Positions 8,656 to 43,368 of a stretch of 44,514 bases of DNA are shown here, piece by piece. The notes under the pieces are model-generated. The model searched no databases and was not told the DNA's origin. It worked only from the letters and a program-made list of their open reading frames with translations. The position numbers and the translations under genes were made by a program. Source of the stretch: a virus; the UHGV virus genome UHGV-1355725, one strand, 5' to 3'. Each line of letters starts with the position of its first letter. The stretch's first letter is position 1.

Positions 8656-8687
8656 TTGCGCACCCCAATATAATAGGGTACTATTCA
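8656..8687 (+). promoter_or_regulatory. class-1 promoter with embedded inverted-repeat operator
   Basis: TTGCGC (8656-8661), 17-bp spacer, TACTAT (8679-8684); inverted repeat AATAG-GGTA-CTATT at 8672-8685; followed by RBS AAGGAG and ATG 8715. Confidence 0.5.
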
Positions 8688-10920: not shown

Positions 10921-10948
10921 AAAAGGCCCCGAAAGGGGCCTTAGTTTT
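10921..10948. terminator. bidirectional rho-independent terminator
   Basis: Hairpin AGGCCCC-gaa-GGGGCCT (10924-10941) flanked by A-run on one side and T-run on the other; lies between convergent genes (plus insertion operon, minus major tail gene). Confidence 0.6.
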
Positions 10949-12116
10949 ATGCGTAGGTGATACGCTGGATAACAATAGACGACTGGTACTGATTGCCGGT
11001 AGCCTGGCCTTCAATGGACTGAGTGATTGACTCAGGCCCGCCAATCTCTGGTGTAACCGCCGTAAGTTCCGCACGTTTCAGGCTGAAAGACATAGCCCCA
11101 TTTACCCCCGCCAGAATAGAGTTAATCTCTACCTGCTGCTCGTTGATAAACTTCTGAATCATCGCCATGTCGTACAGCTTGCCGGAGATGGAGAATGTGT
11201 TAGCTGCGCGGCCTCGCTCCACGAACGCGACGCTACTGTTGCCTAGTTCGAACTGCGCGGAAGCGCCATTGTCGTTTGTGATAGTGAGAGTGTCGCAGCG
11301 CAACGGCGTAGAACCGTCGAATACCGAAACGTCAACAGAAGAGAACGGCTCATCGGTGAACGTCACCTGCGAGAAATCAGAACCGGCTGGCGGCGCGGTA
11401 AGAATCTCCTGACTCAAGCCGATGAACGGGAAACTACCTGTCACCATCGCATTAACAGCCTGCTCGATGGTGAAACCTGATATTTCCACGCCTTTGGTCA
11501 ACATGTACGCGTCCTGGTTACCGCACTGGCCTTTGAACCATGTCAGGATGGAGAAAGTCTTACATGCGTTACCCGTTTCCAGTTTGTCGCCAGTTTTTCC
11601 ATCGGTCTCAATAGGGCCTTCGGCGGTCAGGGTGTGTTGAATACCCGCACCCGTAACCACAGTAGCAGTTACTGAGGTAACGATGAACGGCTTAGAGTTA
11701 TCGCCGGTTAAAGCGTCAAAATACAGAAGGTCCCCGACCTCTACACCGTCAGTAATGAAACTGCCAGTGTCGCGGGTGAAAGTTTTTGCTACCGGGTCTA
11801 CTGTAATACCGACAGCGGATAAGGTTACCCCATCCTGCCATGTGGATGTCATCGCACCAGCAAGGAAATCATCCTGGCTACGGGAGCTAAGCTCGATAGC
11901 GTACTCCCCGCTAACCTGCTTGTTACCGGTGCGGATGGACGTAGTTTCACGGCTGCCGTCCAGCTCGTTGGAAGTCAGTGCATCGCGGGTTACCGCAGGA
12001 ACGCCGCCAGTGTTGCGCAACGGCGACCATACCGGGTTACTTGGTGTTACACCCGGGGTCACTTCCGCCACATAGAATTGCGCGGTATTCGCGCCCTTAA
12101 AAGGAGTTGTAGCCAT
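10947..12116 (-). CDS. major tail protein
   Basis: About 389 aa from ATG 12116 with RBS AAGAGG; last large structural gene before the chaperone/tape-measure block; followed by a terminator. Confidence 0.5.
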   Translation of the reverse strand: MATTPFKGANTAQFYVAEVTPGVTPSNPVWSPLRNTGGVPAVTRDALTSNELDGSRETTSIRTGNKQVSGEYAIELSSRSQDDFLAGAMTSTWQDGVTLSAVGITVDPVAKTFTRDTGSFITDGVEVGDLLYFDALTGDNSKPFIVTSVTATVVTGAGIQHTLTAEGPIETDGKTGDKLETGNACKTFSILTWFKGQCGNQDAYMLTKGVEISGFTIEQAVNAMVTGSFPFIGLSQEILTAPPAGSDFSQVTFTDEPFSSVDVSVFDGSTPLRCDTLTITNDNGASAQFELGNSSVAFVERGRAANTFSISGKLYDMAMIQKFINEQQVEINSILAGVNGAMSFSLKRAELTAVTPEIGGPESITQSIEGQATGNQYQSSIVIQRITYA

Positions 12117-17688: not shown

Positions 17689-17720
17689 TTGCAGACACCA
17701 ATATAATAGGGTACTATTCA
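17689..17720 (+). promoter_or_regulatory. class-1 promoter with embedded inverted-repeat operator
   Basis: TTGCAG (17689-17694), 17-bp spacer, TACTAT (17712-17717); inverted repeat AATAG-GGTA-CTATT 17705-17718; RBS AGGAGG and ATG 17745 follow. Confidence 0.5.
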
Positions 17721-17744: not shown

Positions 17745-17975
17745 ATGGGTACATACACACATTCTATAAACTGGAAAGGCAGACGTGGTTTGGCGGTTCT
17801 CGAAGGGGGTGTTTCAGGCCCCCACGCGTTTGGGTGGTGGCTAGTGCCATCGTATTCAAACAAACATGGCGGGCAGGACTACGACTGGAATAACGCCGTT
17901 CCTACTAGATTCAAAACAAAGAAAGCCGCGTTGGATGCACGTAAAGAGTTAAGAAAAGGAGGATTATTTTTATAG
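17745..17975 (+). CDS. hypothetical protein (single-gene insertion)
   Basis: 76-aa ORF with own promoter and terminator, on the opposite strand to the flanking late genes. Confidence 0.5.
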   Translation: MGTYTHSINWKGRRGLAVLEGGVSGPHAFGWWLVPSYSNKHGGQDYDWNNAVPTRFKTKKAALDARKELRKGGLFL

Positions 17976-17980
17976 TAAAA

Positions 17981-18008
17981 CTAAGGCCCCATTATGGGGC
18001 CTTTTATC
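17981..18008. terminator. bidirectional rho-independent terminator
   Basis: Hairpin AGGCCCC-attat-GGGGCCT (17984-18002) followed by TTTT; lies between convergent stops. Confidence 0.6.
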
Positions 18009-18468
18009 ATTCTGGCTTAGTGACCTTCGCCGCTTTGCTTACCACCTCTACACCATCGGCATCGGTAACTTTAACGAAGTATTCACCCGCCGCGTTAACC
18101 GTCAGAGACAAAGCCTCTTCCGGGGCGTTGACTACTTCCTTACCGTCTTTGTACCAGGTCAGCACATATGGCGCTTTGCCCGCCTTAACTTCAACAGTGA
18201 TAGTTGCGCTGCCGTCTGCTGGTTCGACGTCTTTCGGTTGCACCGAGAAGTACACGTCACCCGCGTCCGCCAGATACGGAATCTCATAAAGCATACCCGC
18301 CGCCGGGAGCGCAATACCGGTTTTATCCGCAAACGGCATATCGTCTACCGGTGTACCTAGTACACTTTCATCTTCGATAAATACCACATTCTCGCTAGAG
18401 CCAGACACGCGGGCGTACTGGACTACGCGACGAGAAGGTACATCAGTTACTTTGAAAAAGCCCATCAT
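18007..18468 (-). CDS. Ig-like domain structural protein
   Basis: 153 aa; C-terminal Ig-like segment (ATITVEVKAGKAPYVLTWYKDGKEV...GEYFVKVTDADG); coupled to the head morphogenesis gene. Confidence 0.45.
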   Translation of the reverse strand: MMGFFKVTDVPSRRVVQYARVSGSSENVVFIEDESVLGTPVDDMPFADKTGIALPAAGMLYEIPYLADAGDVYFSVQPKDVEPADGSATITVEVKAGKAPYVLTWYKDGKEVVNAPEEALSLTVNAAGEYFVKVTDADGVEVVSKAAKVTKPE

Positions 18469-20405
18469 TATTCCCCTTTCAGATAATCAGCAACACGTCT
18501 ATCGAGTTCCGCCATCTGCTTAAGCGTGAGCGGATTCCCGAAACCATCTACAGATATTACGCGAAACTCTTCCGGCGATATACCGCTGTTGCGGAAAATC
18601 TTACCCCGCACCGGGCCTAACGCCTGGTCCTGAAACCATGCAGGTTGTTGTTTAAGGAACTCGTAATAAGTGGTGTCCGCACTTACCTGAGTTCCGCCAT
18701 CTGCACCCTTAGCCGCGCGTTTTGCGCCTTTATCCAGGAAGTCGAACTCTGAACTGATTACAGGTGCCGTGGTACTTCGGCAGCCAAAATGGGCTGGGGG
18801 CATTGGCCCTTTACCAATCTCCCACGTCATTCCGTCTCTGGCCCTGCAATTCTTGACTATCGCACTACCTGCTGTATAATATCCTTGACTACTAGAGAGG
18901 GTATAAACATGGCACGTTCTAAACTCGACGCTTATGCGGATGATATTTGTTCTTTGTACCGAGATGGCACTCCCGCCAGCATCATAGCCAAGAATTACGG
19001 CGTCACTACCACCACGGTAACAACATTTCTCAAGAAGCTCGGACTCATGCATGATCGACCCCGTGGTTGGGTTTCTAACGACACCATTTTGAATCAAAAA
19101 AGGGCTATAGAATTGTTCGAGTCCGGCGTCCCGCCTATTGAGTGCATAAGAAGGACCCAAGTCAGCAAAACAGTTTTCTATTCTATGGTCAAAACACTTG
19201 GCCTCGCTAAGCGCGGGCACACTCACAGGACATTCACCCCGGAGGAGAAAATCGCCAGAGCTATCGTCCGACAGCAAAGCGGCGCTATGAATAAGACTGA
19301 AACCATCGCTTTTGAATTGTTTAATTCCGCTGGCGTGGACGTAGTTCCGCAGTTTGCAATCGGCCCGTACAATGTCGATTTTGCCATTGAGTCCCACTCC
19401 ATCGCCATAGAAATCTGTTGCCGCGGGACTCGTGCTTACCATTTTCCTGATGGGGAAATCAGCGAGCGTATTAAAAATATAATCCGCTCTGGCTGGCATG
19501 TTTATGTTCTTCACTGTTTCGAGCACAGTCACTTTGTCAACAGTGGTATACAAGACATGCTTAGTTGGATCGAGTTCATCAAGCGGAGTCCATCCGTATT
19601 GCGTGAGTACAGGGTGTTTCGGGGTGCCACTGAACTTCTCGCCGTTGGAAAGTTCGATGGTAAAGATTTTTCCTGAATAGAGTCCGCGCATTACCGCGTC
19701 CATCCCCGCGATGGGCGCTAATTCTGTTTCAGCCGTGAAACACGTTGTACTGGTACGGCTGTCCAATGTTGATACCCACTCATATTTCTCGATGATGTCG
19801 TCGTTCTGGCGGTACGTCTCGTTACGTGCTTCATTGGACACGTGAGACAGCGCGGTGCGGATTACAGTAGCCGCGTTACGTTCAGAGATGTCAGCCAGTC
19901 CGCCAGCGCCTACAACACTTTTAACAATCTGCCGCGTAGTTTGGCCTTGTACGAAGCCCATCTTAACGCCAGTTACCAGGCGCGCGACTTCTGTTTCACC
20001 CCAACCTGACATCAGCTTGGTGAAGTCAACAGGCTTGTCGCTCAGTGAGAGCGGCTGAAACTCGGCGGCGGCCCACACCTGTTCTGCGGTAGGTGTAACA
20101 AATTCCGCGTTAACGTTGGCGGTCAGTGTCTTTACGTTCCACTCAGCCTCATACTTCGCCAATTCCTTAAGGTCTTCTGTCAGCTTTGTTTGCCAGTCAC
20201 CTGTAAGCCAGGTTAGCGCTTCTTCAAGGTTGAGTAACAGTTTATTCAGTCGCGCAGTGCTCCGCCCGTCGTCGCCGAATAACAGCACCTGCCGTTTGAT
20301 TTCGTCCCGCATTTCCTGAATGAACGGTGCAAGGTCTTTCACTTCTCCGGAAGCGGTTCGTTGCAGCCATATCTGGTGGCTGATTAAGGATGTAAGTAAG
20401 CTCAT
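18468..20405 (-). CDS. head morphogenesis protein (SPP1 gp7 / Mu F-like) interrupted by an intein
   Basis: ATG 20405 with RBS AGGAGG; F-like motifs WVSTLDSRTSTT (before the intein) and GKGPMPPAHFGCRS (after); 298-aa insertion with intein signatures between them; located just after the portal gene. Confidence 0.7.
   Translation of the reverse strand: MSLLTSLISHQIWLQRTASGEVKDLAPFIQEMRDEIKRQVLLFGDDGRSTARLNKLLLNLEEALTWLTGDWQTKLTEDLKELAKYEAEWNVKTLTANVNAEFVTPTAEQVWAAAEFQPLSLSDKPVDFTKLMSGWGETEVARLVTGVKMGFVQGQTTRQIVKSVVGAGGLADISERNAATVIRTALSHVSNEARNETYRQNDDIIEKYEWVSTLDSRTSTTCFTAETELAPIAGMDAVMRGLYSGKIFTIELSNGEKFSGTPKHPVLTQYGWTPLDELDPTKHVLYTTVDKVTVLETVKNINMPARADYIFNTLADFPIRKMVSTSPAATDFYGDGVGLNGKIDIVRADCKLRNYVHASGIKQFKSDGFSLIHSAALLSDDSSGDFLLRGECPVSVPALSEAKCFDHRIENCFADLGPSYALNRRDAGLEQFYSPFLIQNGVVRNPTTGSIMHESELLEKCCYRGGSDAVILGYDAGGSAISVQRTNIIRISVEFRTCHVYTLSSSQGYYTAGSAIVKNCRARDGMTWEIGKGPMPPAHFGCRSTTAPVISSEFDFLDKGAKRAAKGADGGTQVSADTTYYEFLKQQPAWFQDQALGPVRGKIFRNSGISPEEFRVISVDGFGNPLTLKQMAELDRRVADYLKGE
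18853..18880 (+). promoter_or_regulatory. near-consensus sigma70-type promoter inside the intein, antisense to the head morphogenesis gene
   Basis: TTGACT (18853-18858), 16-bp spacer, TATAAT (18875-18880); RBS GAGAGGG and ATG 18909 follow. Confidence 0.5.
18909..19676 (+). CDS. nested antisense gene: HTH domains plus DUF559/Vsr-like (PD-(D/E)xK-type) endonuclease domain, candidate homing endonuclease
   Basis: 255 aa from ATG 18909; two HTH-like segments (IIAKNYGVTTTTVTTFLKKLGL; IECIRRTQVSKTVFYSMVKTLGL); C-terminal YNVDFAIESHSIAIEI...RSGWHVYVL resembling Vsr/DUF559 endonucleases; lies entirely within the intein on the opposite strand. Confidence 0.55.
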   Translation: MARSKLDAYADDICSLYRDGTPASIIAKNYGVTTTTVTTFLKKLGLMHDRPRGWVSNDTILNQKRAIELFESGVPPIECIRRTQVSKTVFYSMVKTLGLAKRGHTHRTFTPEEKIARAIVRQQSGAMNKTETIAFELFNSAGVDVVPQFAIGPYNVDFAIESHSIAIEICCRGTRAYHFPDGEISERIKNIIRSGWHVYVLHCFEHSHFVNSGIQDMLSWIEFIKRSPSVLREYRVFRGATELLAVGKFDGKDFS

Positions 20406-20448
20406 AGGCCCTCCTGTAGTATCGACAGTGTAACGCATAAAAATAATA

Positions 20449-20481
20449 TTTGCAGACACCAATATAATAGGGTACTATTCA
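20449..20481 (+). promoter_or_regulatory. class-1 promoter with embedded inverted-repeat operator
   Basis: TTGCAG (20449-20454), 17-bp spacer, TACTAT (20473-20478); inverted repeat AATAG-GGTA-CTATT 20466-20479; 40-nt block identical to the copy at 17689. Confidence 0.5.
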
Positions 20482-20506: not shown

Positions 20507-20791
20507 ATGACACACAAATTTAAAGGTACAGACGGCGCATGGGTTAATCACGGAACAGCTATCTGGGCGGGGGACGTTTATGTGGCCGAGGTAATGAGTA
20601 TGCGGGAAAAGGACTCCGTAAAATTAGCTAACGCAAAACTTATCACCTCGGCACCCGAGTTACTTGAAGCACTTCGCCAGCTTCGCGATTACGTCGAGGA
20701 TGTTTGTGCAGTATCTTCTGATGATTGCCATGAAGACCATCCATTAAATCGGGCCAACAGAGCAATCAAGAAAGCATTAGGAAAGAAATAA
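20507..20791 (+). CDS. hypothetical protein (single-gene insertion)
   Basis: 94-aa ORF between the head morphogenesis and portal genes on the opposite strand; own promoter and terminator. Confidence 0.5.
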   Translation: MTHKFKGTDGAWVNHGTAIWAGDVYVAEVMSMREKDSVKLANAKLITSAPELLEALRQLRDYVEDVCAVSSDDCHEDHPLNRANRAIKKALGKK

Positions 20792-20794
20792 AAA

Positions 20795-20820
20795 TAAGGC
20801 CCCATAACGGGGCCTTTTTC
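20795..20820. terminator. bidirectional rho-independent terminator
   Basis: Hairpin AAGGCCCC-ataac-GGGGCCTT followed by TTTTTC; between convergent stops (20791 plus, 20822 minus). Confidence 0.6.
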
Positions 20821-22309: not shown

Positions 22310-23560
22310 TTAAAGTGCGAAAGTCACCGGGATGTTGATTACTGGTTTAACCACCGGCATCTCATAAACTACAGGATAGCCGAGAGCATCTGCCATATGG
22401 TCAATGATGCCGTCTTTAGCTGGCTCTCCGTTATCGTCATATGCCTGCTGCTCCAGCGTCTTGGCTATCTCAGGGCATAAGTGGTCGTTAACCCACAGCT
22501 TACCTTTTTCCAGCGCGGCATTCACGGCTAAAACGCGGTCTTTAACCGGTGGGTTGGCGGATTTAGCGCGAACATCGAAACCCGCCTGCTGTAGTAAGGC
22601 GATATCAGAGATTGACGCTGAGTTTGTCTTGCGGTTCTTGCCGCTGGCATCCGGGTAAACGACGATGCGGTGGCCTTGCAACTTCCACTTCTCAGTAATT
22701 ACACGCACGGTGTCCGGCGTATCAAACAGACCTTTCAGTTCTGCAACCGCATGCCAGCCGTCTTTACGTTGCACATACACGGCGCTGGCGTTCTTCGTAA
22801 CGTTGAAGTCCTGCCCGATGTACAGCGTGTCGCCAGGTTGAATTGTCTCTTTGCTGCGGTGCTTACGGCGGTCGTAGGCGTAATACACGCTGCCGGAGGT
22901 AAGGTTGACGAACTCACCGTTCAGATAAGCATTAATCAGTTGCGCCGGATAAGTCTCGGTTAGTGAGCTGATGTAGTCCGGAGGCAGGAATCGCGCGTTC
23001 TCATGTGTGGAAGCCTGCACCATTGAGTAACTTGGAGTTGGATTCTCTTTAAACTTGGCGTAGACGAACTTGAACCCTTCCGGCGTCGTGGTAACAGAGA
23101 TGTGGTTAGTTACACCAGGAATAACCAGACGCATACGGGCCACAATTTTGTTCCACGCCAGCTCGGCTTTCTCGCGGCTCAATACGTCCAGCTCATCCAC
23201 GACCGCTGCGGCGATTTTGAAGCCCACAATCGAGCCTGGGTTATCCATTGAACGGCAGATAACAGTTCCGAGCACTGTCTTACCGCGAGTTACAACGACT
23301 TCTTTGTCGCCAGATTTAACCAGCACATCGAGTCCGAGCAGGTTAGCCGCTTCCTCGAATGTCGGGTAGAAGATGTCGCGTATGGCCGGGTATGTCGGGC
23401 CGAAGTAGCCCAGGCGCGTACCGGGGTGCTTTAGCATAAACGTAAGCAGGTCGAGACAGCCAACAAATGTCTTGCCGCTGCCGAAGCCGCCGACATAGGC
23501 CTTGTATTTATTATCGCAGTTCAGGAACAACGCCTGTGGTGCAGATAGCTGAATACTCAT
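22310..23560 (-). CDS. terL: terminase large subunit
   Basis: Walker A GGFGSGKT, Walker B VVDELD, C-terminal nuclease-like region; RBS GGAGGA; 416 aa. Confidence 0.85.
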   Translation of the reverse strand: MSIQLSAPQALFLNCDNKYKAYVGGFGSGKTFVGCLDLLTFMLKHPGTRLGYFGPTYPAIRDIFYPTFEEAANLLGLDVLVKSGDKEVVVTRGKTVLGTVICRSMDNPGSIVGFKIAAAVVDELDVLSREKAELAWNKIVARMRLVIPGVTNHISVTTTPEGFKFVYAKFKENPTPSYSMVQASTHENARFLPPDYISSLTETYPAQLINAYLNGEFVNLTSGSVYYAYDRRKHRSKETIQPGDTLYIGQDFNVTKNASAVYVQRKDGWHAVAELKGLFDTPDTVRVITEKWKLQGHRIVVYPDASGKNRKTNSASISDIALLQQAGFDVRAKSANPPVKDRVLAVNAALEKGKLWVNDHLCPEIAKTLEQQAYDDNGEPAKDGIIDHMADALGYPVVYEMPVVKPVINIPVTFAL

Positions 23561-24102
23561 TCCTCCACCTCGCCCATGTTAGTTGTTACAATTTTACCTA
23601 CAGGCTCTGCAACACTGAAAATAATCTCGGTTGGTGCTGTTTCTTCGGCGGATTCAACTGGTTTCTCTTTGCCGAGGCCCAGCTTAGCGGCAGCGAATCT
23701 GGCCGAGATTCCGATAGCCCCGTTTTCTAAGAAGTAAGCCTCTTCAAGCGCTTTCGCGGTTTCATAGGCTTCCGCAAATGCAGGAATCTCGCGCAGCCAC
23801 AGATTAATAATTGGGATAGTTACCCCTATGTGTAGTGCGAATCGGACAAGAGATGGCGGTTTGTCCTGCATAAGAGCGCGTTTTTCACCTTTCGGCGTAA
23901 GCTCGAATTCCCATGACGTGCGGTCGAAGAACTCGATTAACGCGTCGCAATAGTCCGGGTCCCACAATGCGGCGGAATTACGGGATGATTGATAAAGGCT
24001 CTGTTTGCCGCGCGGTCGTTTACGGCGACGGTTTGCGCTAACAGCTTCTTCATGTGCAGCTTGCACCACCTCTGGTGATGGCTGCTTGAGTTTCAGCTTC
24101 AT
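23557..24102 (-). CDS. putative terminase small subunit
   Basis: 181-aa ORF from ATG 24102 (RBS AGGGGA), overlapping the terL start by 4 nt; assignment positional. Confidence 0.45.
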   Translation of the reverse strand: MKLKLKQPSPEVVQAAHEEAVSANRRRKRPRGKQSLYQSSRNSAALWDPDYCDALIEFFDRTSWEFELTPKGEKRALMQDKPPSLVRFALHIGVTIPIINLWLREIPAFAEAYETAKALEEAYFLENGAIGISARFAAAKLGLGKEKPVESAEETAPTEIIFSVAEPVGKIVTTNMGEVEE

Positions 24103-24195
24103 AGAATCCCCTTGCATATGCGTCTGACCATCAGAGCGCACCAGACGCGCCCTACGCGTCTAAATGGATTATATAAGGGGATTGGGCGGGATGTA

Positions 24196-24219
24196 CAGAA
24201 AAGCCCTCTACGGAGGGCT
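24196..24219 (-). terminator. rho-independent terminator upstream of the packaging genes
   Basis: Hairpin GCCCTC-cgta-GAGGGC followed on the minus strand by TTTTCTGT. Confidence 0.4.
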
Positions 24220-24321
24220 TGTATCAGTTGTATAGACCGTATCGTGAGGCTCTTTTACCATCGCCGCCGTAATGGTCGTTAGCTACGGCTATAGTCCAGG
24301 CGTTGGGTATGATTAGTAGTC

Positions 24322-24504
24322 TCATTTGAAGAACCACAAAAGGATGCCTGCGATACCTGAGATATACAGCCCGCCAACAATCATCCATAATTGAAGCCTA
24401 GGCAGTTGCTTCACTACGGGCCAACTTGATATAAGCGCCCATGCGAACGCCATAATAAATACATTATATCCAAAACGCCTAAGAAACTCTAAAACCTCAA
24501 TCAT
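24322..24504 (-). CDS. small membrane protein
   Basis: 60 aa with two hydrophobic segments. Confidence 0.4.
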   Translation of the reverse strand: MIEVLEFLRRFGYNVFIMAFAWALISSWPVVKQLPRLQLWMIVGGLYISGIAGILLWFFK

Positions 24505-24761
24505 TCCCTACTCTCCCCTTTAGCAATGCGTTGCTCTGTTTTAGTGATACCACGGCGTGTGAATAACACCGGGCTTGTCTTAACGTGCGTCATGAGACGA
24601 TTGTTATAAATTACATGGCGCTCGCAATCAACGTCTTTGCTGTACTTCGCAATGGTCATTTCGTTGATGCCTGTTTGTCTGCACGTCTCCGCCATCGTGC
24701 CAAATTCTTTAATCAGGTTCGGAATGCTGGTAATCATCCTAAGAAATTCCTCGTTGTCCAC
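24501..24761 (-). CDS. hypothetical protein with HTH-like segment
   Basis: 86-aa ORF; segment TMAETCRQTGINEMTIAKYS resembles an HTH; candidate regulator, inference only. Confidence 0.35.
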   Translation of the reverse strand: MDNEEFLRMITSIPNLIKEFGTMAETCRQTGINEMTIAKYSKDVDCERHVIYNNRLMTHVKTSPVLFTRRGITKTEQRIAKGESRE

Positions 24762-24908
24762 ATCGCATTCGGATATTTATTATCGCGGTCCTGCACTACG
24801 GCAATCATGTTACCGCGTTGCACGAGGCAGAAGTGCCGTTGTTGCTCGCCGTTGTAGCGACGCCATATTGCTTCTTCGATTGCTGAGTCGATGTCACTGA
24901 ACATACTC

Positions 24909-25091
24909 TCACCCCACTATCTCATCACCAAGCCACGCCGTTTCTCGTATATCATCGACAACACAAGCGGCGTGCTCACGGCTAATTGCAAAAATGTAGA
25001 AGCTGAACTTCTTCCCATCGGCGTAGATGTGGTTAACCGAGTAAGGTTTCCACAGGACGCCTTCTATAGCTACTGGCTCAGGCGCTTTCAT
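24909..25091 (-). CDS. hypothetical protein
   Basis: 60-aa ORF in the minus-strand small-gene block. Confidence 0.3.
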   Translation of the reverse strand: MKAPEPVAIEGVLWKPYSVNHIYADGKKFSFYIFAISREHAACVVDDIRETAWLGDEIVG

Positions 25092-30231: not shown

Positions 30232-30264
30232 GTGAATAGTAACCTATTATGTTGGGGTGTGCAA
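30232..30264 (-). promoter_or_regulatory. class-1 promoter with embedded inverted-repeat operator (minus strand)
   Basis: Minus strand TTGCAC (rc of 30259-30264), 17-bp spacer, TACTAT (rc of 30236-30241); inverted repeat AATAG-TAAC-CTATT 30235-30248. Confidence 0.5.
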
Positions 30265-33992: not shown

Positions 33993-34022
33993 TTGACAAC
34001 ATGAATAGTTAGCTATTATAGT
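33993..34022 (+). promoter_or_regulatory. class-2 promoter with embedded inverted-repeat operator
   Basis: TTGACA (33993-33998), 18-bp spacer, TATAGT (34017-34022); inverted repeat AATAG-TTAG-CTATT 34004-34017. Confidence 0.55.
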
Positions 34023-34054
34023 TAGCCCATACCAAACGAGAGGAGAGAAACAAA

Positions 34055-36541: not shown

Positions 36542-36545
36542 AGTG

Positions 36546-36574
36546 TTGACACCTGAATAGTTAGCTATTATAGT
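36546..36574 (+). promoter_or_regulatory. class-2 promoter with embedded inverted-repeat operator
   Basis: TTGACA (36546-36551), 17-bp spacer, TATAGT (36569-36574); inverted repeat AATAG-TTAG-CTATT 36556-36569, identical core to the copy at 34004. Confidence 0.55.
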
Positions 36575-36628
36575 TCTAATCACTGGCCGGGCAGCTTCCC
36601 GGAGTAAACTGAAAAGCGAGAAACTAAG

Positions 36629-37255: not shown

Positions 37256-37272
37256 TATCTGAATCAATTTAA

Positions 37273-37298
37273 CTAAGGCCCTTCATTGGGCCTTTTTA
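37273..37298 (+). terminator. rho-independent terminator
   Basis: Hairpin AAGGCCC-ttcatt-GGGCCTT followed by TTTT. Confidence 0.5.
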
Positions 37299-40917: not shown

Positions 40918-41202
40918 ATGACCCCGGAAGGCAAAATACAGAAATACGCAAAAGAGCGATTCGAGGCCCTTGGGGGCCTCGTACGCAAATTGTCGTACGA
41001 AAATAGAGCAGGAGCGCCCGACCTGCTGGTAATTCTCCCCCGCGGCATCGTCTGGTTCGTCGAGGTTAAGAAAGACGAAAATACGAAGCCTGACCCGCAC
41101 CAGCTACGGGAACACGAGCGGATGCGTAAACGTGGTGCGAATGTTTTTGTCGTTGGTTCGTTTAAACAGGTTGACGACCTAATAGCGAGCTATTATAGTT
41201 AA
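40918..41202 (+). CDS. VRR-NUC domain nuclease
   Basis: Motif GAPDLLVILPRGIVWFVEVKKDEN...QLREHE typical of VRR-NUC. Confidence 0.6.
   Translation: MTPEGKIQKYAKERFEALGGLVRKLSYENRAGAPDLLVILPRGIVWFVEVKKDENTKPDPHQLREHERMRKRGANVFVVGSFKQVDDLIASYYS
41171..41199 (+). promoter_or_regulatory. class-2 promoter with embedded inverted-repeat operator
   Basis: TTGACG (41171-41176), 17-bp spacer, TATAGT (41194-41199); inverted repeat AATAG-CGAG-CTATT 41181-41194; lies within the 3' end of the VRR-NUC gene. Confidence 0.5.
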
Positions 41203-43339: not shown

Positions 43340-43368
43340 AAAAGGCCCCGTTTGGGGCCTTAGTTTTA
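43340..43368. terminator. bidirectional rho-independent terminator
   Basis: Hairpin AGGCCCC-gttt-GGGGCCT with flanking A/T runs; between the plus replication module and the minus tailspike gene. Confidence 0.6.

Follow-up and report, generated by a model that had tools for sequence, protein, structure and literature searches.

Introduction

Stem-loops at the very 5' end are known to stabilize Escherichia coli mRNAs by blocking 5'-end-dependent decay, and protection in the 5' untranslated region (UTR) of ompA comes from two elements (Emory 1992; Bouvet and Belasco 1992; Arnold 1998; via the review PMC3997798). Phage HK022 encodes put sites, copies of which stand behind its early promoters; each has two adjacent stem-loops just downstream of the promoter, and putL starts at +3 (PMC9378689). 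The nut sites of lambda also place a short pentaloop hairpin in a promoter-proximal leader, and the pac regions of the headful phages SPP1 (pacL, pacC and pacR) and P22 (pac within gene 3) are highly conserved and lie at the 5' end of the small terminase gene. At ordinary terminator-promoter junctions, a GC-rich hairpin with a U-tract closes one gene cluster and a sigma-70 -10 hexamer opens the next. The locus described here resembles each of these in part. It occupies positions 24103-24320 of the virus genome UHGV-1355725 (44,514 nucleotides, the whole of which is called the window below), ahead of the small terminase gene terS, and it is a transcription-unit junction of a Kagunavirus-like phage, made up of a terminator, a host-type promoter and a terminase-mRNA leader with two hairpins, here called HP1 and HP2.

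What separates this locus from an ordinary junction is the unusually tight fit of its parts, with the U-tract abutting or overlapping the -35 region, and the inheritance of the whole as one block, together with the leader and terS, across mosaic genomes. The comparison with the ompA 5' UTR concerns the arrangement of the leader. In both, a short 5' UTR folds into a pair of hairpins, of which one starts at the 5' end (a predicted end in terS) or no more than about 1 nt from it, and the other stops shortly ahead of an exposed Shine-Dalgarno sequence. Their sequences are unrelated, the terS leader is about 60 nt long as against 133 nt in ompA, and its loop nucleotides are conserved across genera, which is not required of a pure stabilizer. 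No description of a two-hairpin terS leader was found in the literature searched.

A Conserved Block ahead of the Terminase Genes

The block of about 120 nt that runs from the terminator to the terS ATG is almost invariant in 42 non-redundant IMG/VR upstream regions, even in those with unrelated adjoining upstream sequence. Because the near-invariance holds in these as well, the conserved block must begin exactly at the terminator, and mosaic upstream sequences do meet it exactly at its 5' edge. BLASTN matched the block in 376 phage records. Over the 1.5 kb surrounding the interval, identity to the Escherichia phages EF2-1, G AB-2017, K1G and other members of Kagunavirus (Guernseyvirinae) is 89-90%, and when 34 Kagunavirus-type loci were compared with the window, the block was 93.9% identical, terS 80.2% and the third-codon positions of terS 63%. 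Such comparisons of sequence show that the features of the block do not stand there by chance, with the terminator, the promoter hexamers and both predicted hairpins evidently under strong purifying selection.

The same order of parts is found upstream of terS in Kagunavirus, Jerseyvirus, Cornellvirus (two types), Dhillonvirus and three uncultured clades, and so in at least seven clades. The distant members of this set, with TerS proteins of about 30-35% identity, were Cornellvirus FSL SP-049, TS6 and St162, Dhillonvirus welsh and SP1, and the uncultured clades from IMG/VR and metagenomes. From 5' to 3', the common order is a terminator hairpin, a -10 hexamer (TATAAT or TACAAT) with a weak -35 or an extended -10, a spacer of 6-8 nt, HP1, HP2, a spacer of 3-10 nt, the Shine-Dalgarno sequence and terS. 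Across the clades, HP1 is a stem of 6-8 bp, and HP2 has a lower stem, a bulge or internal loop and an upper stem of 5 bp. The element always stands in front of one TerS family; TerS relatives at a greater distance (at most 37% identity) do not have it upstream. The terminator, the promoter and the two-hairpin leader are selected as one unit.

Within a genome, the element appears to be unique. Covariance models made from the leader alignments gave a single match in the window (24116-24163, minus strand, 71-80 bits) and a single match in the complete EF2-1 genome; a regular-expression scan and two covariance models, one with filters off, likewise returned only the terS copy in these two sequences. 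A cmscan of positions 23500-25000 against Rfam 15, with E up to 10, gave only a chance snoRNA match elsewhere in that stretch. The two-hairpin leader, as predicted from these comparisons, is a new RNA motif of a familiar kind.

The Inverted Repeats as RNA Hairpins

Between clades, the stems of both hairpins change and the pairing is kept. HP1 occurs as AGACGCG/CGCGUCU, AGAUGG/CCGUCU, AGGUGG/CCACCU, GAUGUG/CACGUC and GAGGUGCG/CGCGUCUC, with double changes at three of its seven pairs and single changes of the G.U type at three, and the upper stem of HP2 occurs as UCUGA/UCAGA, UAUGA/UCAUA, GCCGA/UCGGC and UGCGA/UCGCG. In the model-fitted alignment, 98.6% of the pairing cells are paired and 7 of 17 pairs have changes on both sides; covariation is 0.314 as against a shuffled mean of 0.151 (no shuffle out of 500 reached the observed value) and 0.046 for the best slid control. 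The plain MAFFT alignment gives 87% and 6 of 17 pairs, with a covariation of 0.267 as against a shuffled mean of 0.191 (again 0/500) and 0.202 for the best slid control, and here none of the three variable pairs in the upper stem of HP2 is broken in any cell. Both hairpins are present in the minimum-free-energy fold (RNAfold) of nearly all 43 distinct leaders, and the sense strand folds better than the antisense strand in 32 of the 43.

The one-sided changes tell on which molecule this pairing acts. On the terS-sense strand, 42 cells are G.U or U.G and 2 are A.C, and Cornellvirus HP1 (GAGGTGCG/CGCGTCTC) even has a tandem G.U/U.G, which would be G.T as DNA. Neither a double-stranded DNA palindrome nor an antisense RNA would show such an asymmetry. 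The compensatory changes and the 42:2 excess point to a structure at the level of RNA on the terS-sense strand, and by this evidence the inverted repeats are RNA hairpins of the terS mRNA leader and not DNA sites for an activator or for terminase. A first-pass annotation of this DNA had placed AGACGCG-N5-CGCGTCT at 24143-24161, which is exactly HP1, and TCTGA-N3-TCAGA at 24123-24135, where the coordinates were exact and the extent fell short, as this repeat is the upper half of the longer hairpin at 24141-24118. Its suggestion that the repeats could be an activator site goes against the same compensatory changes and G.U excess.

These pairs were counted explicitly in place of using RNAalifold, which on the plain MAFFT alignment of the 43 leaders gave a weak, long-range fold that is spurious because the stem indels of Dhillonvirus, Cornellvirus and clade E were misaligned. 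A hand-made structural alignment padded with N for MAFFT shifted whole clades and was not used. Two other candidates were rejected. AGACGC as a repeated protein half-site has 34 copies in the window where 25.7 are expected, which is not significant, and the half-site of the second repeat reads AUACGC in Jerseyvirus. An attenuator-like alternative pairing between the 3' arms of the two repeats is broken by a Jerseyvirus substitution, as read from the sequence, and is not conserved.

The repeats might still act as double-stranded DNA, either as a pac site for the small terminase or as an operator or activator site over the promoter +1, and the setting gives this proposal some appeal. SPP1 has its pac site at the promoter and 5' part of the small terminase gene, the block has very high sequence conservation and GenBank records are often opened within it. 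Relatives package by headful according to published data: PhageTerm made a P1-like headful (pac) call for Jerseyvirus K47, with no submolar fragment and no position reported (PMC10783031), and for fBC-Eco01 no termini were found. The record ends carry no weight as evidence for cos or pac, since they are annotators' conventions wherever the papers say so, and a literature search on Guernseyvirinae and Dhillonvirus found no pac coordinates. In contrast to what is expected of a pac region, substitutions in the terS leader keep RNA pairing rather than DNA symmetry, and the positions at which the DNA palindromes are imperfect are just those that can pair as G.U in RNA, as in Cornellvirus HP1. The stems change compensatorily while the N-terminal region of TerS, the inferred place of its DNA-binding domain, cannot be aligned between clades, and the operator-like palindrome AATAG-N4-CTATT known from elsewhere in the window is absent here. 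A role as DNA is thus very improbable, and the idea of the first-pass annotation that the repeats belong to a packaging signal is unsupported, given headful relatives, conventional record ends and substitutions that keep RNA pairing.

Terminator, Promoter and Predicted Transcript Start

Positions of the features, here and in Table 1, follow the terS-sense (minus) strand unless a plus strand is given. The terminator has a predicted folding energy of -13.1 kcal/mol (z = -3.5), and none of 200 shuffles was as stable. It lies about 100 nt past the stop of the 60-aa open reading frame (ORF), and its plus-strand reading has a poorer T tail. A simple terminator scan overlooked the hairpin at 24220-24201 because the greedy stem of the scan takes in two U of the tail. 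The stem covaries among clades (GCCCUC/GAGGGC, GCCCGC/GCGGGC and GCCCGCC/GGUGGGC) with loops that vary freely, and clade E has only a long-loop hairpin as terminator. A minus-strand terminator hairpin had been placed at 24203-24218 from the letters of the window; these core coordinates are correct, and both the fold and the covariation of the stem support them.

Two observations on the surroundings of this stem may be recorded. The loop is CGUA in the window and UACG, its exact reverse complement, in all 57 related loci with the same stem; the difference looks like an inversion of the hairpin loop, as would come from template switching within a quasi-palindrome, that left the stem unchanged. 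The stretch of about 100 nt that separates the terminator from the end of the 60-aa ORF (24221-24321, minus) is non-coding, contains a hairpin GCCGUA...UACGGC at about 24289-24265, and is kept in those Kagunavirus and Jerseyvirus genomes that have the same upstream gene.

The promoter ahead of terS, here called P_terS, scored 10/12 overall in the promoter scan. Its -35-like hexamer TGTACA matches the consensus at 4 of 6 positions, which bears out the earlier description of a TATAAT without a good -35. TGTACA-N16-19-TAYAAT occurs once in the 44.5-kb window, as against 0.04 occurrences expected, and TGTACA is invariant in Kagunavirus and Jerseyvirus despite differing spacer sequence. In the other clades, TTGCCT stands at 17 bp in Cornellvirus, an extended -10 (TGnTATAAT) in Dhillonvirus and a poor -35 in clade E. 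A plus-strand antisense promoter with TAGAAT at 24103-24108, where terS starts, was considered and dropped; it lacks a usable -35 and was not called by the promoter scan.

The transcript is inferred to start at about A24161, which is also the first paired base of HP1. In every clade, the distance from the -10 to the base of HP1 is 6-8 nt, and the intervening sequence differs; this fixed distance would put HP1 at the 5' terminus of the transcript, with HP1 and HP2 together spanning about +1 to +44.

Table 1. Positions of the junction, its neighbouring genes and the transcription signals of the late region in the window
Feature	Position	Strand	Remarks
Rho-independent terminator	24220..24193	minus	8-bp stem AAGCCCUC (24220-24213) / GAGGGCUU (24208-24201), loop CGUA (24212-24209), then UUUUCUGU; U-rich tail to 24193
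-35-like hexamer TGTACA	24197..24192	minus	18 bp upstream of the -10; overlaps end of terminator tail
-10 hexamer TATAAT of P_terS	24173..24168	minus	TATAAT or TACAAT in 43/43 distinct aligned leaders
Predicted transcription start A	24161	minus	7th nt past the -10 (7-nt rule); first paired base of HP1
HP1 RNA hairpin (predicted)	24161..24143	minus	AGACGCG / UAGGG / CGCGUCU; -13.0 kcal/mol, z = -5.1
HP2 RNA hairpin (predicted)	24141..24118	minus	Lower stem GUGCG/CGCAU, bulged C 24136, upper stem UCUGA/UCAGA, loop UGG; 10 bp plus bulged C; -11.4 kcal/mol, z = -2.8
Shine-Dalgarno AAGGGGA	24113..24107	minus	Left single-stranded by the leader fold
terS start codon ATG	24102..24100	minus	Preceded by AAGGGGA; in frame with ORF 23557-24141
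NinH-like gene	24761-24501	minus	
60-aa ORF	24504-24322	minus	
terS, small terminase	24102-23557	minus	181 aa; first gene of unit; PHROG 3064 'terminase', E = 1e-66
terL	23560-22310	minus	Pfam Terminase_6N and 6C matches
Portal gene	22297-20822	minus	DUF4055 match
Consensus-like sigma-70 promoters in upstream small-gene run	26107-26079, 25984-25956		
Embedded opposite-strand small genes	20507-20791; ~17745-17980	plus	Each closed by near-identical bidirectional terminator AAGGCCCC-loop-GGGGCCUU
Bidirectional terminators	20789-20818, 17976-18005, 10921-10949, 37268-37297, 43340-43368		Would also stop minus-strand late transcription
Strong late-region terminator hairpins	20818-20789, 18003-17983, 15022-15001, 10942-10923, 7996-7973	minus	
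22-nt element GAATAGTACCCTATTATATTGG	20459-20480, 17698-17719, 8665-8686	minus	Before three morphogenesis segments
Same repeated element	30234-30255, 33993-34023, 36545-36575, 41170-41200	plus	

Ribosome-Binding Site and Start Codon of terS

The Shine-Dalgarno sequence begins 3-10 nt after the end of HP2, and in the minimum-free-energy folds of 43/43 leaders it is unpaired or weakly paired together with the AUG. The terS ATG is at 24102, not at 24103. Some GenBank records (EF2-1 gp29 and St162 gp32; loci L001, 3703-3739, and L056, 542-586) start TerS instead at a GUG or AUG within the HP2 stem, 13-15 codons ahead of the ATG that has the Shine-Dalgarno sequence; the corresponding codon here is GTG 24141. 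Read as coding sequence, HP2 would give an N-terminal extension that lacks a Shine-Dalgarno sequence of its own. The extension joins TerS in frame in Kagunavirus, Jerseyvirus and Cornellvirus; in Dhillonvirus and clade E its frame is shifted or a stop interrupts it. Since its frame is not kept in Dhillonvirus or clade E, the longer TerS start is probably an artefact of annotation.

The -10/discriminator sequence UAUAAUCC... (24162-24176) is complementary to the Shine-Dalgarno and spacer sequence GGGGAUUCUA (24101-24113), both on the minus strand, and the same is seen in several other clades. In some Kagunavirus leaders the complementarity is a perfect 12 bp, and a Jerseyvirus leader (L037) has a matching double change (TACAAT with AUUGUA). 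This pairing is possible only in an RNA that reads through from upstream, and such an RNA would thereby hide the Shine-Dalgarno sequence, whose calculated unpaired probability in the window is 0.49 in the native leader as against 0.00 in the read-through RNA.

Possible Functions of the Leader

The arrangement suggests how the junction might work. The intrinsic terminator would end transcription of the upstream accessory (nin-like) genes, and the host sigma-70 promoter directly past its U-tract would start the terS mRNA at about A24161, so that the terminator would see to it that terS mRNAs start exactly at HP1. The first 45 nt or so of the transcript would fold into the adjacent HP1 and HP2 and would leave the Shine-Dalgarno sequence and the AUG open. 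HP1, at the 5' terminus, would then deny RppH and RNase E a single-stranded 5' end in the manner of ompA, and HP2 would keep the ribosome-binding site exposed, the outcome being a stable and translatable terS-terL-portal mRNA. Transcripts that read past the terminator would have their Shine-Dalgarno sequence paired with the -10/discriminator, which would add a second, clade-dependent layer of insulation. Because HP1 is predicted to open the transcript and HP2 lies right next to the ribosome-binding site, we would put the chances at about even that this is an ompA-like leader, one that stabilizes the terS-terL-portal mRNA from its 5' terminus and permits its translation.

Several points weigh against this view. 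The literature on Guernseyvirinae and Dhillonvirus, when searched, yielded no data on transcript starts, termination or half-lives, so the 5'-terminal position of HP1 is drawn from promoter geometry. The covariation comes from about seven clades and hence from few independent substitution events, and the alignment with the best pairing (98.6%) was the one fitted to the structure. The hiding of the Shine-Dalgarno sequence in read-through RNA depends on the clade; Cornellvirus type a, L133 and clade E do not show it. Above all, the apex of HP2, GA-UGG-UC, is invariant save for two single-sequence variants (L012 and L058), and the HP1 loop is YWGGG in all clades but one (clade F, with CAGAG). These apices fit a specific ligand better than a generic stabilizer, because a stabilizer needs no conserved loops, yet here the apices stay while the stems change. 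It is possible, if doubtful, that the leader represents a new phage cis-regulatory RNA family, in which a specific ligand, either an RNA-binding protein (possibly terminase) or RNA polymerase, recognizes GA-UGG-UC and YWGGG and times or doses terminase and portal.

We consider it rather unlikely that the hairpins form an RNA operator, bound by a sequence-specific protein of the phage (e.g., in TerS autoregulation) or of the host that sets the translation or decay of the terminase-portal mRNA. On this proposal the conserved apical nucleotides would be displayed by the hairpins, each of which might bind one subunit of a dimer. The near constancy of the apices, as against changes at three of five pairs in the HP2 upper stem and at several pairs of HP1, would be accounted for, and so would the strict co-occurrence of the element with one TerS family; both loops can also be read as xGG triloops when the Y-G closing pair is counted. 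No candidate protein has been identified, though, and the loops lack the GGA core expected of a CsrA motif, as judged by reading the loops, with no motif search made. The Shine-Dalgarno sequence lies outside HP2, so that repression would need steric reach, and the deviating HP1 loop of clade F and the two isolates with variant HP2 loops do not fit well either. Of these readings, we take the ompA-like stabilizing leader as the most likely.

Gene Order and the Late Region

On the minus strand, the genes run in the order NinH-like gene, 60-aa ORF, a gap of 219 bp, terS, terL and portal, and the stop of terS overlaps the start of terL. Further upstream, the same strand carries the holin and endolysin genes, followed by a series of small genes, unknown or NinH-like, with sigma-70 promoters of its own (Table 1). 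For this reason the terminator at 24220-24201 closes an accessory (nin-like) gene unit and not "the early region". The first-pass annotation had seen here the likely boundary between early and late transcription: a transcription-unit boundary is borne out by the terminator and then the promoter ahead of terS, but a clean early/late border is not, with lysis genes upstream on the same strand and other late units that have a promoter of a different type.

The late region does not form a single operon. It is broken up by small genes on the plus strand, which the bidirectional terminators AAGGCCCC...GGGGCCTT delimit, and five strong terminator hairpins stand on the minus strand. No strong terminator lies within terS-terL-portal, and the unit begun at P_terS appears to consist of these three genes only, ending at the strong terminator 20818-20789. 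The same 22-nt element stands ahead of each morphogenesis segment that follows, at three places (Table 1). Within it lies the palindrome AATAG-N4-CTATT, which also occurs in the spacer of the strong plus-strand TTGACA...TATAGT promoters of replication genes at 33993, 36545 and 41170 and is absent from the terS promoter. The element matches the PHIRE consensus tgAATAGTa-ccTATTat-T of the relative fBC-Eco01, which was attributed to a phage-encoded RNA polymerase (PMC9825357). As there is no phage-encoded RNA polymerase among the annotated products of the relative EF2-1, the repeated element is probably an operator for a phage regulator.

The terminators of the late region bear on a further proposal, namely that the leader is a processive antiterminator RNA, like put of HK022, or a nut-like site for an N-type protein, and lets polymerase read through later terminators. 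Like put, the element is phage-encoded and has two adjacent stem-loops just downstream of a phage promoter, beginning within a few nucleotides of the predicted start as in putL (PMC9378689), and for neither has a dedicated protein been identified; the five minus-strand hairpins would supply terminators to be read through. The differences outweigh these likenesses. The element measures about 47 nt as against about 73 nt for put, and the triplex and multiple bulges of put are not predicted in it. In the HK022 genome, the covariance model (model R2, filters off) gave no significant match, the best, within terL, reaching 9.1 bits (E = 3.3). Each genome has a single copy, before terS, rather than one behind each early promoter, and each late segment past an internal terminator has its own repeated promoter element, so that read-through is not needed. 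Kagunavirus leaders share with nut a boxA-like CGCUCU as well as the short pentaloop hairpin, but CGCUCU lies inside the HP2 stem and is not kept outside Kagunavirus, the loop YWGGG is not GNRA-like, and no N-like protein was identified. Antitermination, one of the roles first suggested for these repeats, is accordingly quite improbable, as the unit seems to end at 20818-20789 and the single copy per genome is unlike put.

A side observation concerns one of the late genes. The head-morphogenesis (Mu F-like) ORF at 18468-20462 (minus) encodes 664 aa as against 347 aa in EF2-1. Its match to Pfam Intein_splicing is weak (E = 4e-4) and falls short of the curated cut-off; an intein insertion is probable, and there are reports of inteins for other Guernseyvirinae genes.

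Significance for the Biology of These Phages

A terminator and a promoter before the terminase genes are routine; a leader that keeps its shape and its loop nucleotides while TerS diverges to about 30% identity is not. The work offers a candidate RNA motif, with a covariance model that gives one clean match per genome, for very commonly isolated enterobacterial siphophages. It also corrects annotation, in that several database records begin TerS within HP2. Kagunavirus, Jerseyvirus and Dhillonvirus phages are heavily used in phage-therapy and biocontrol collections and as chassis for synthetic biology.

If the leader is only a stabilizer, it would be a tidy but ordinary case of protection by a 5' hairpin. 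If it sets the amount or the timing of terminase and portal, it would offer a means of adjusting burst size and packaging by engineering, as well as a compact "insulated expression cassette" of natural origin. Should a specific ligand prove to recognize the conserved apices, the leader would be a dedicated post- or co-transcriptional switch for the start of DNA packaging, common to Guernseyvirinae, Dhillonvirus and their uncultured relatives.

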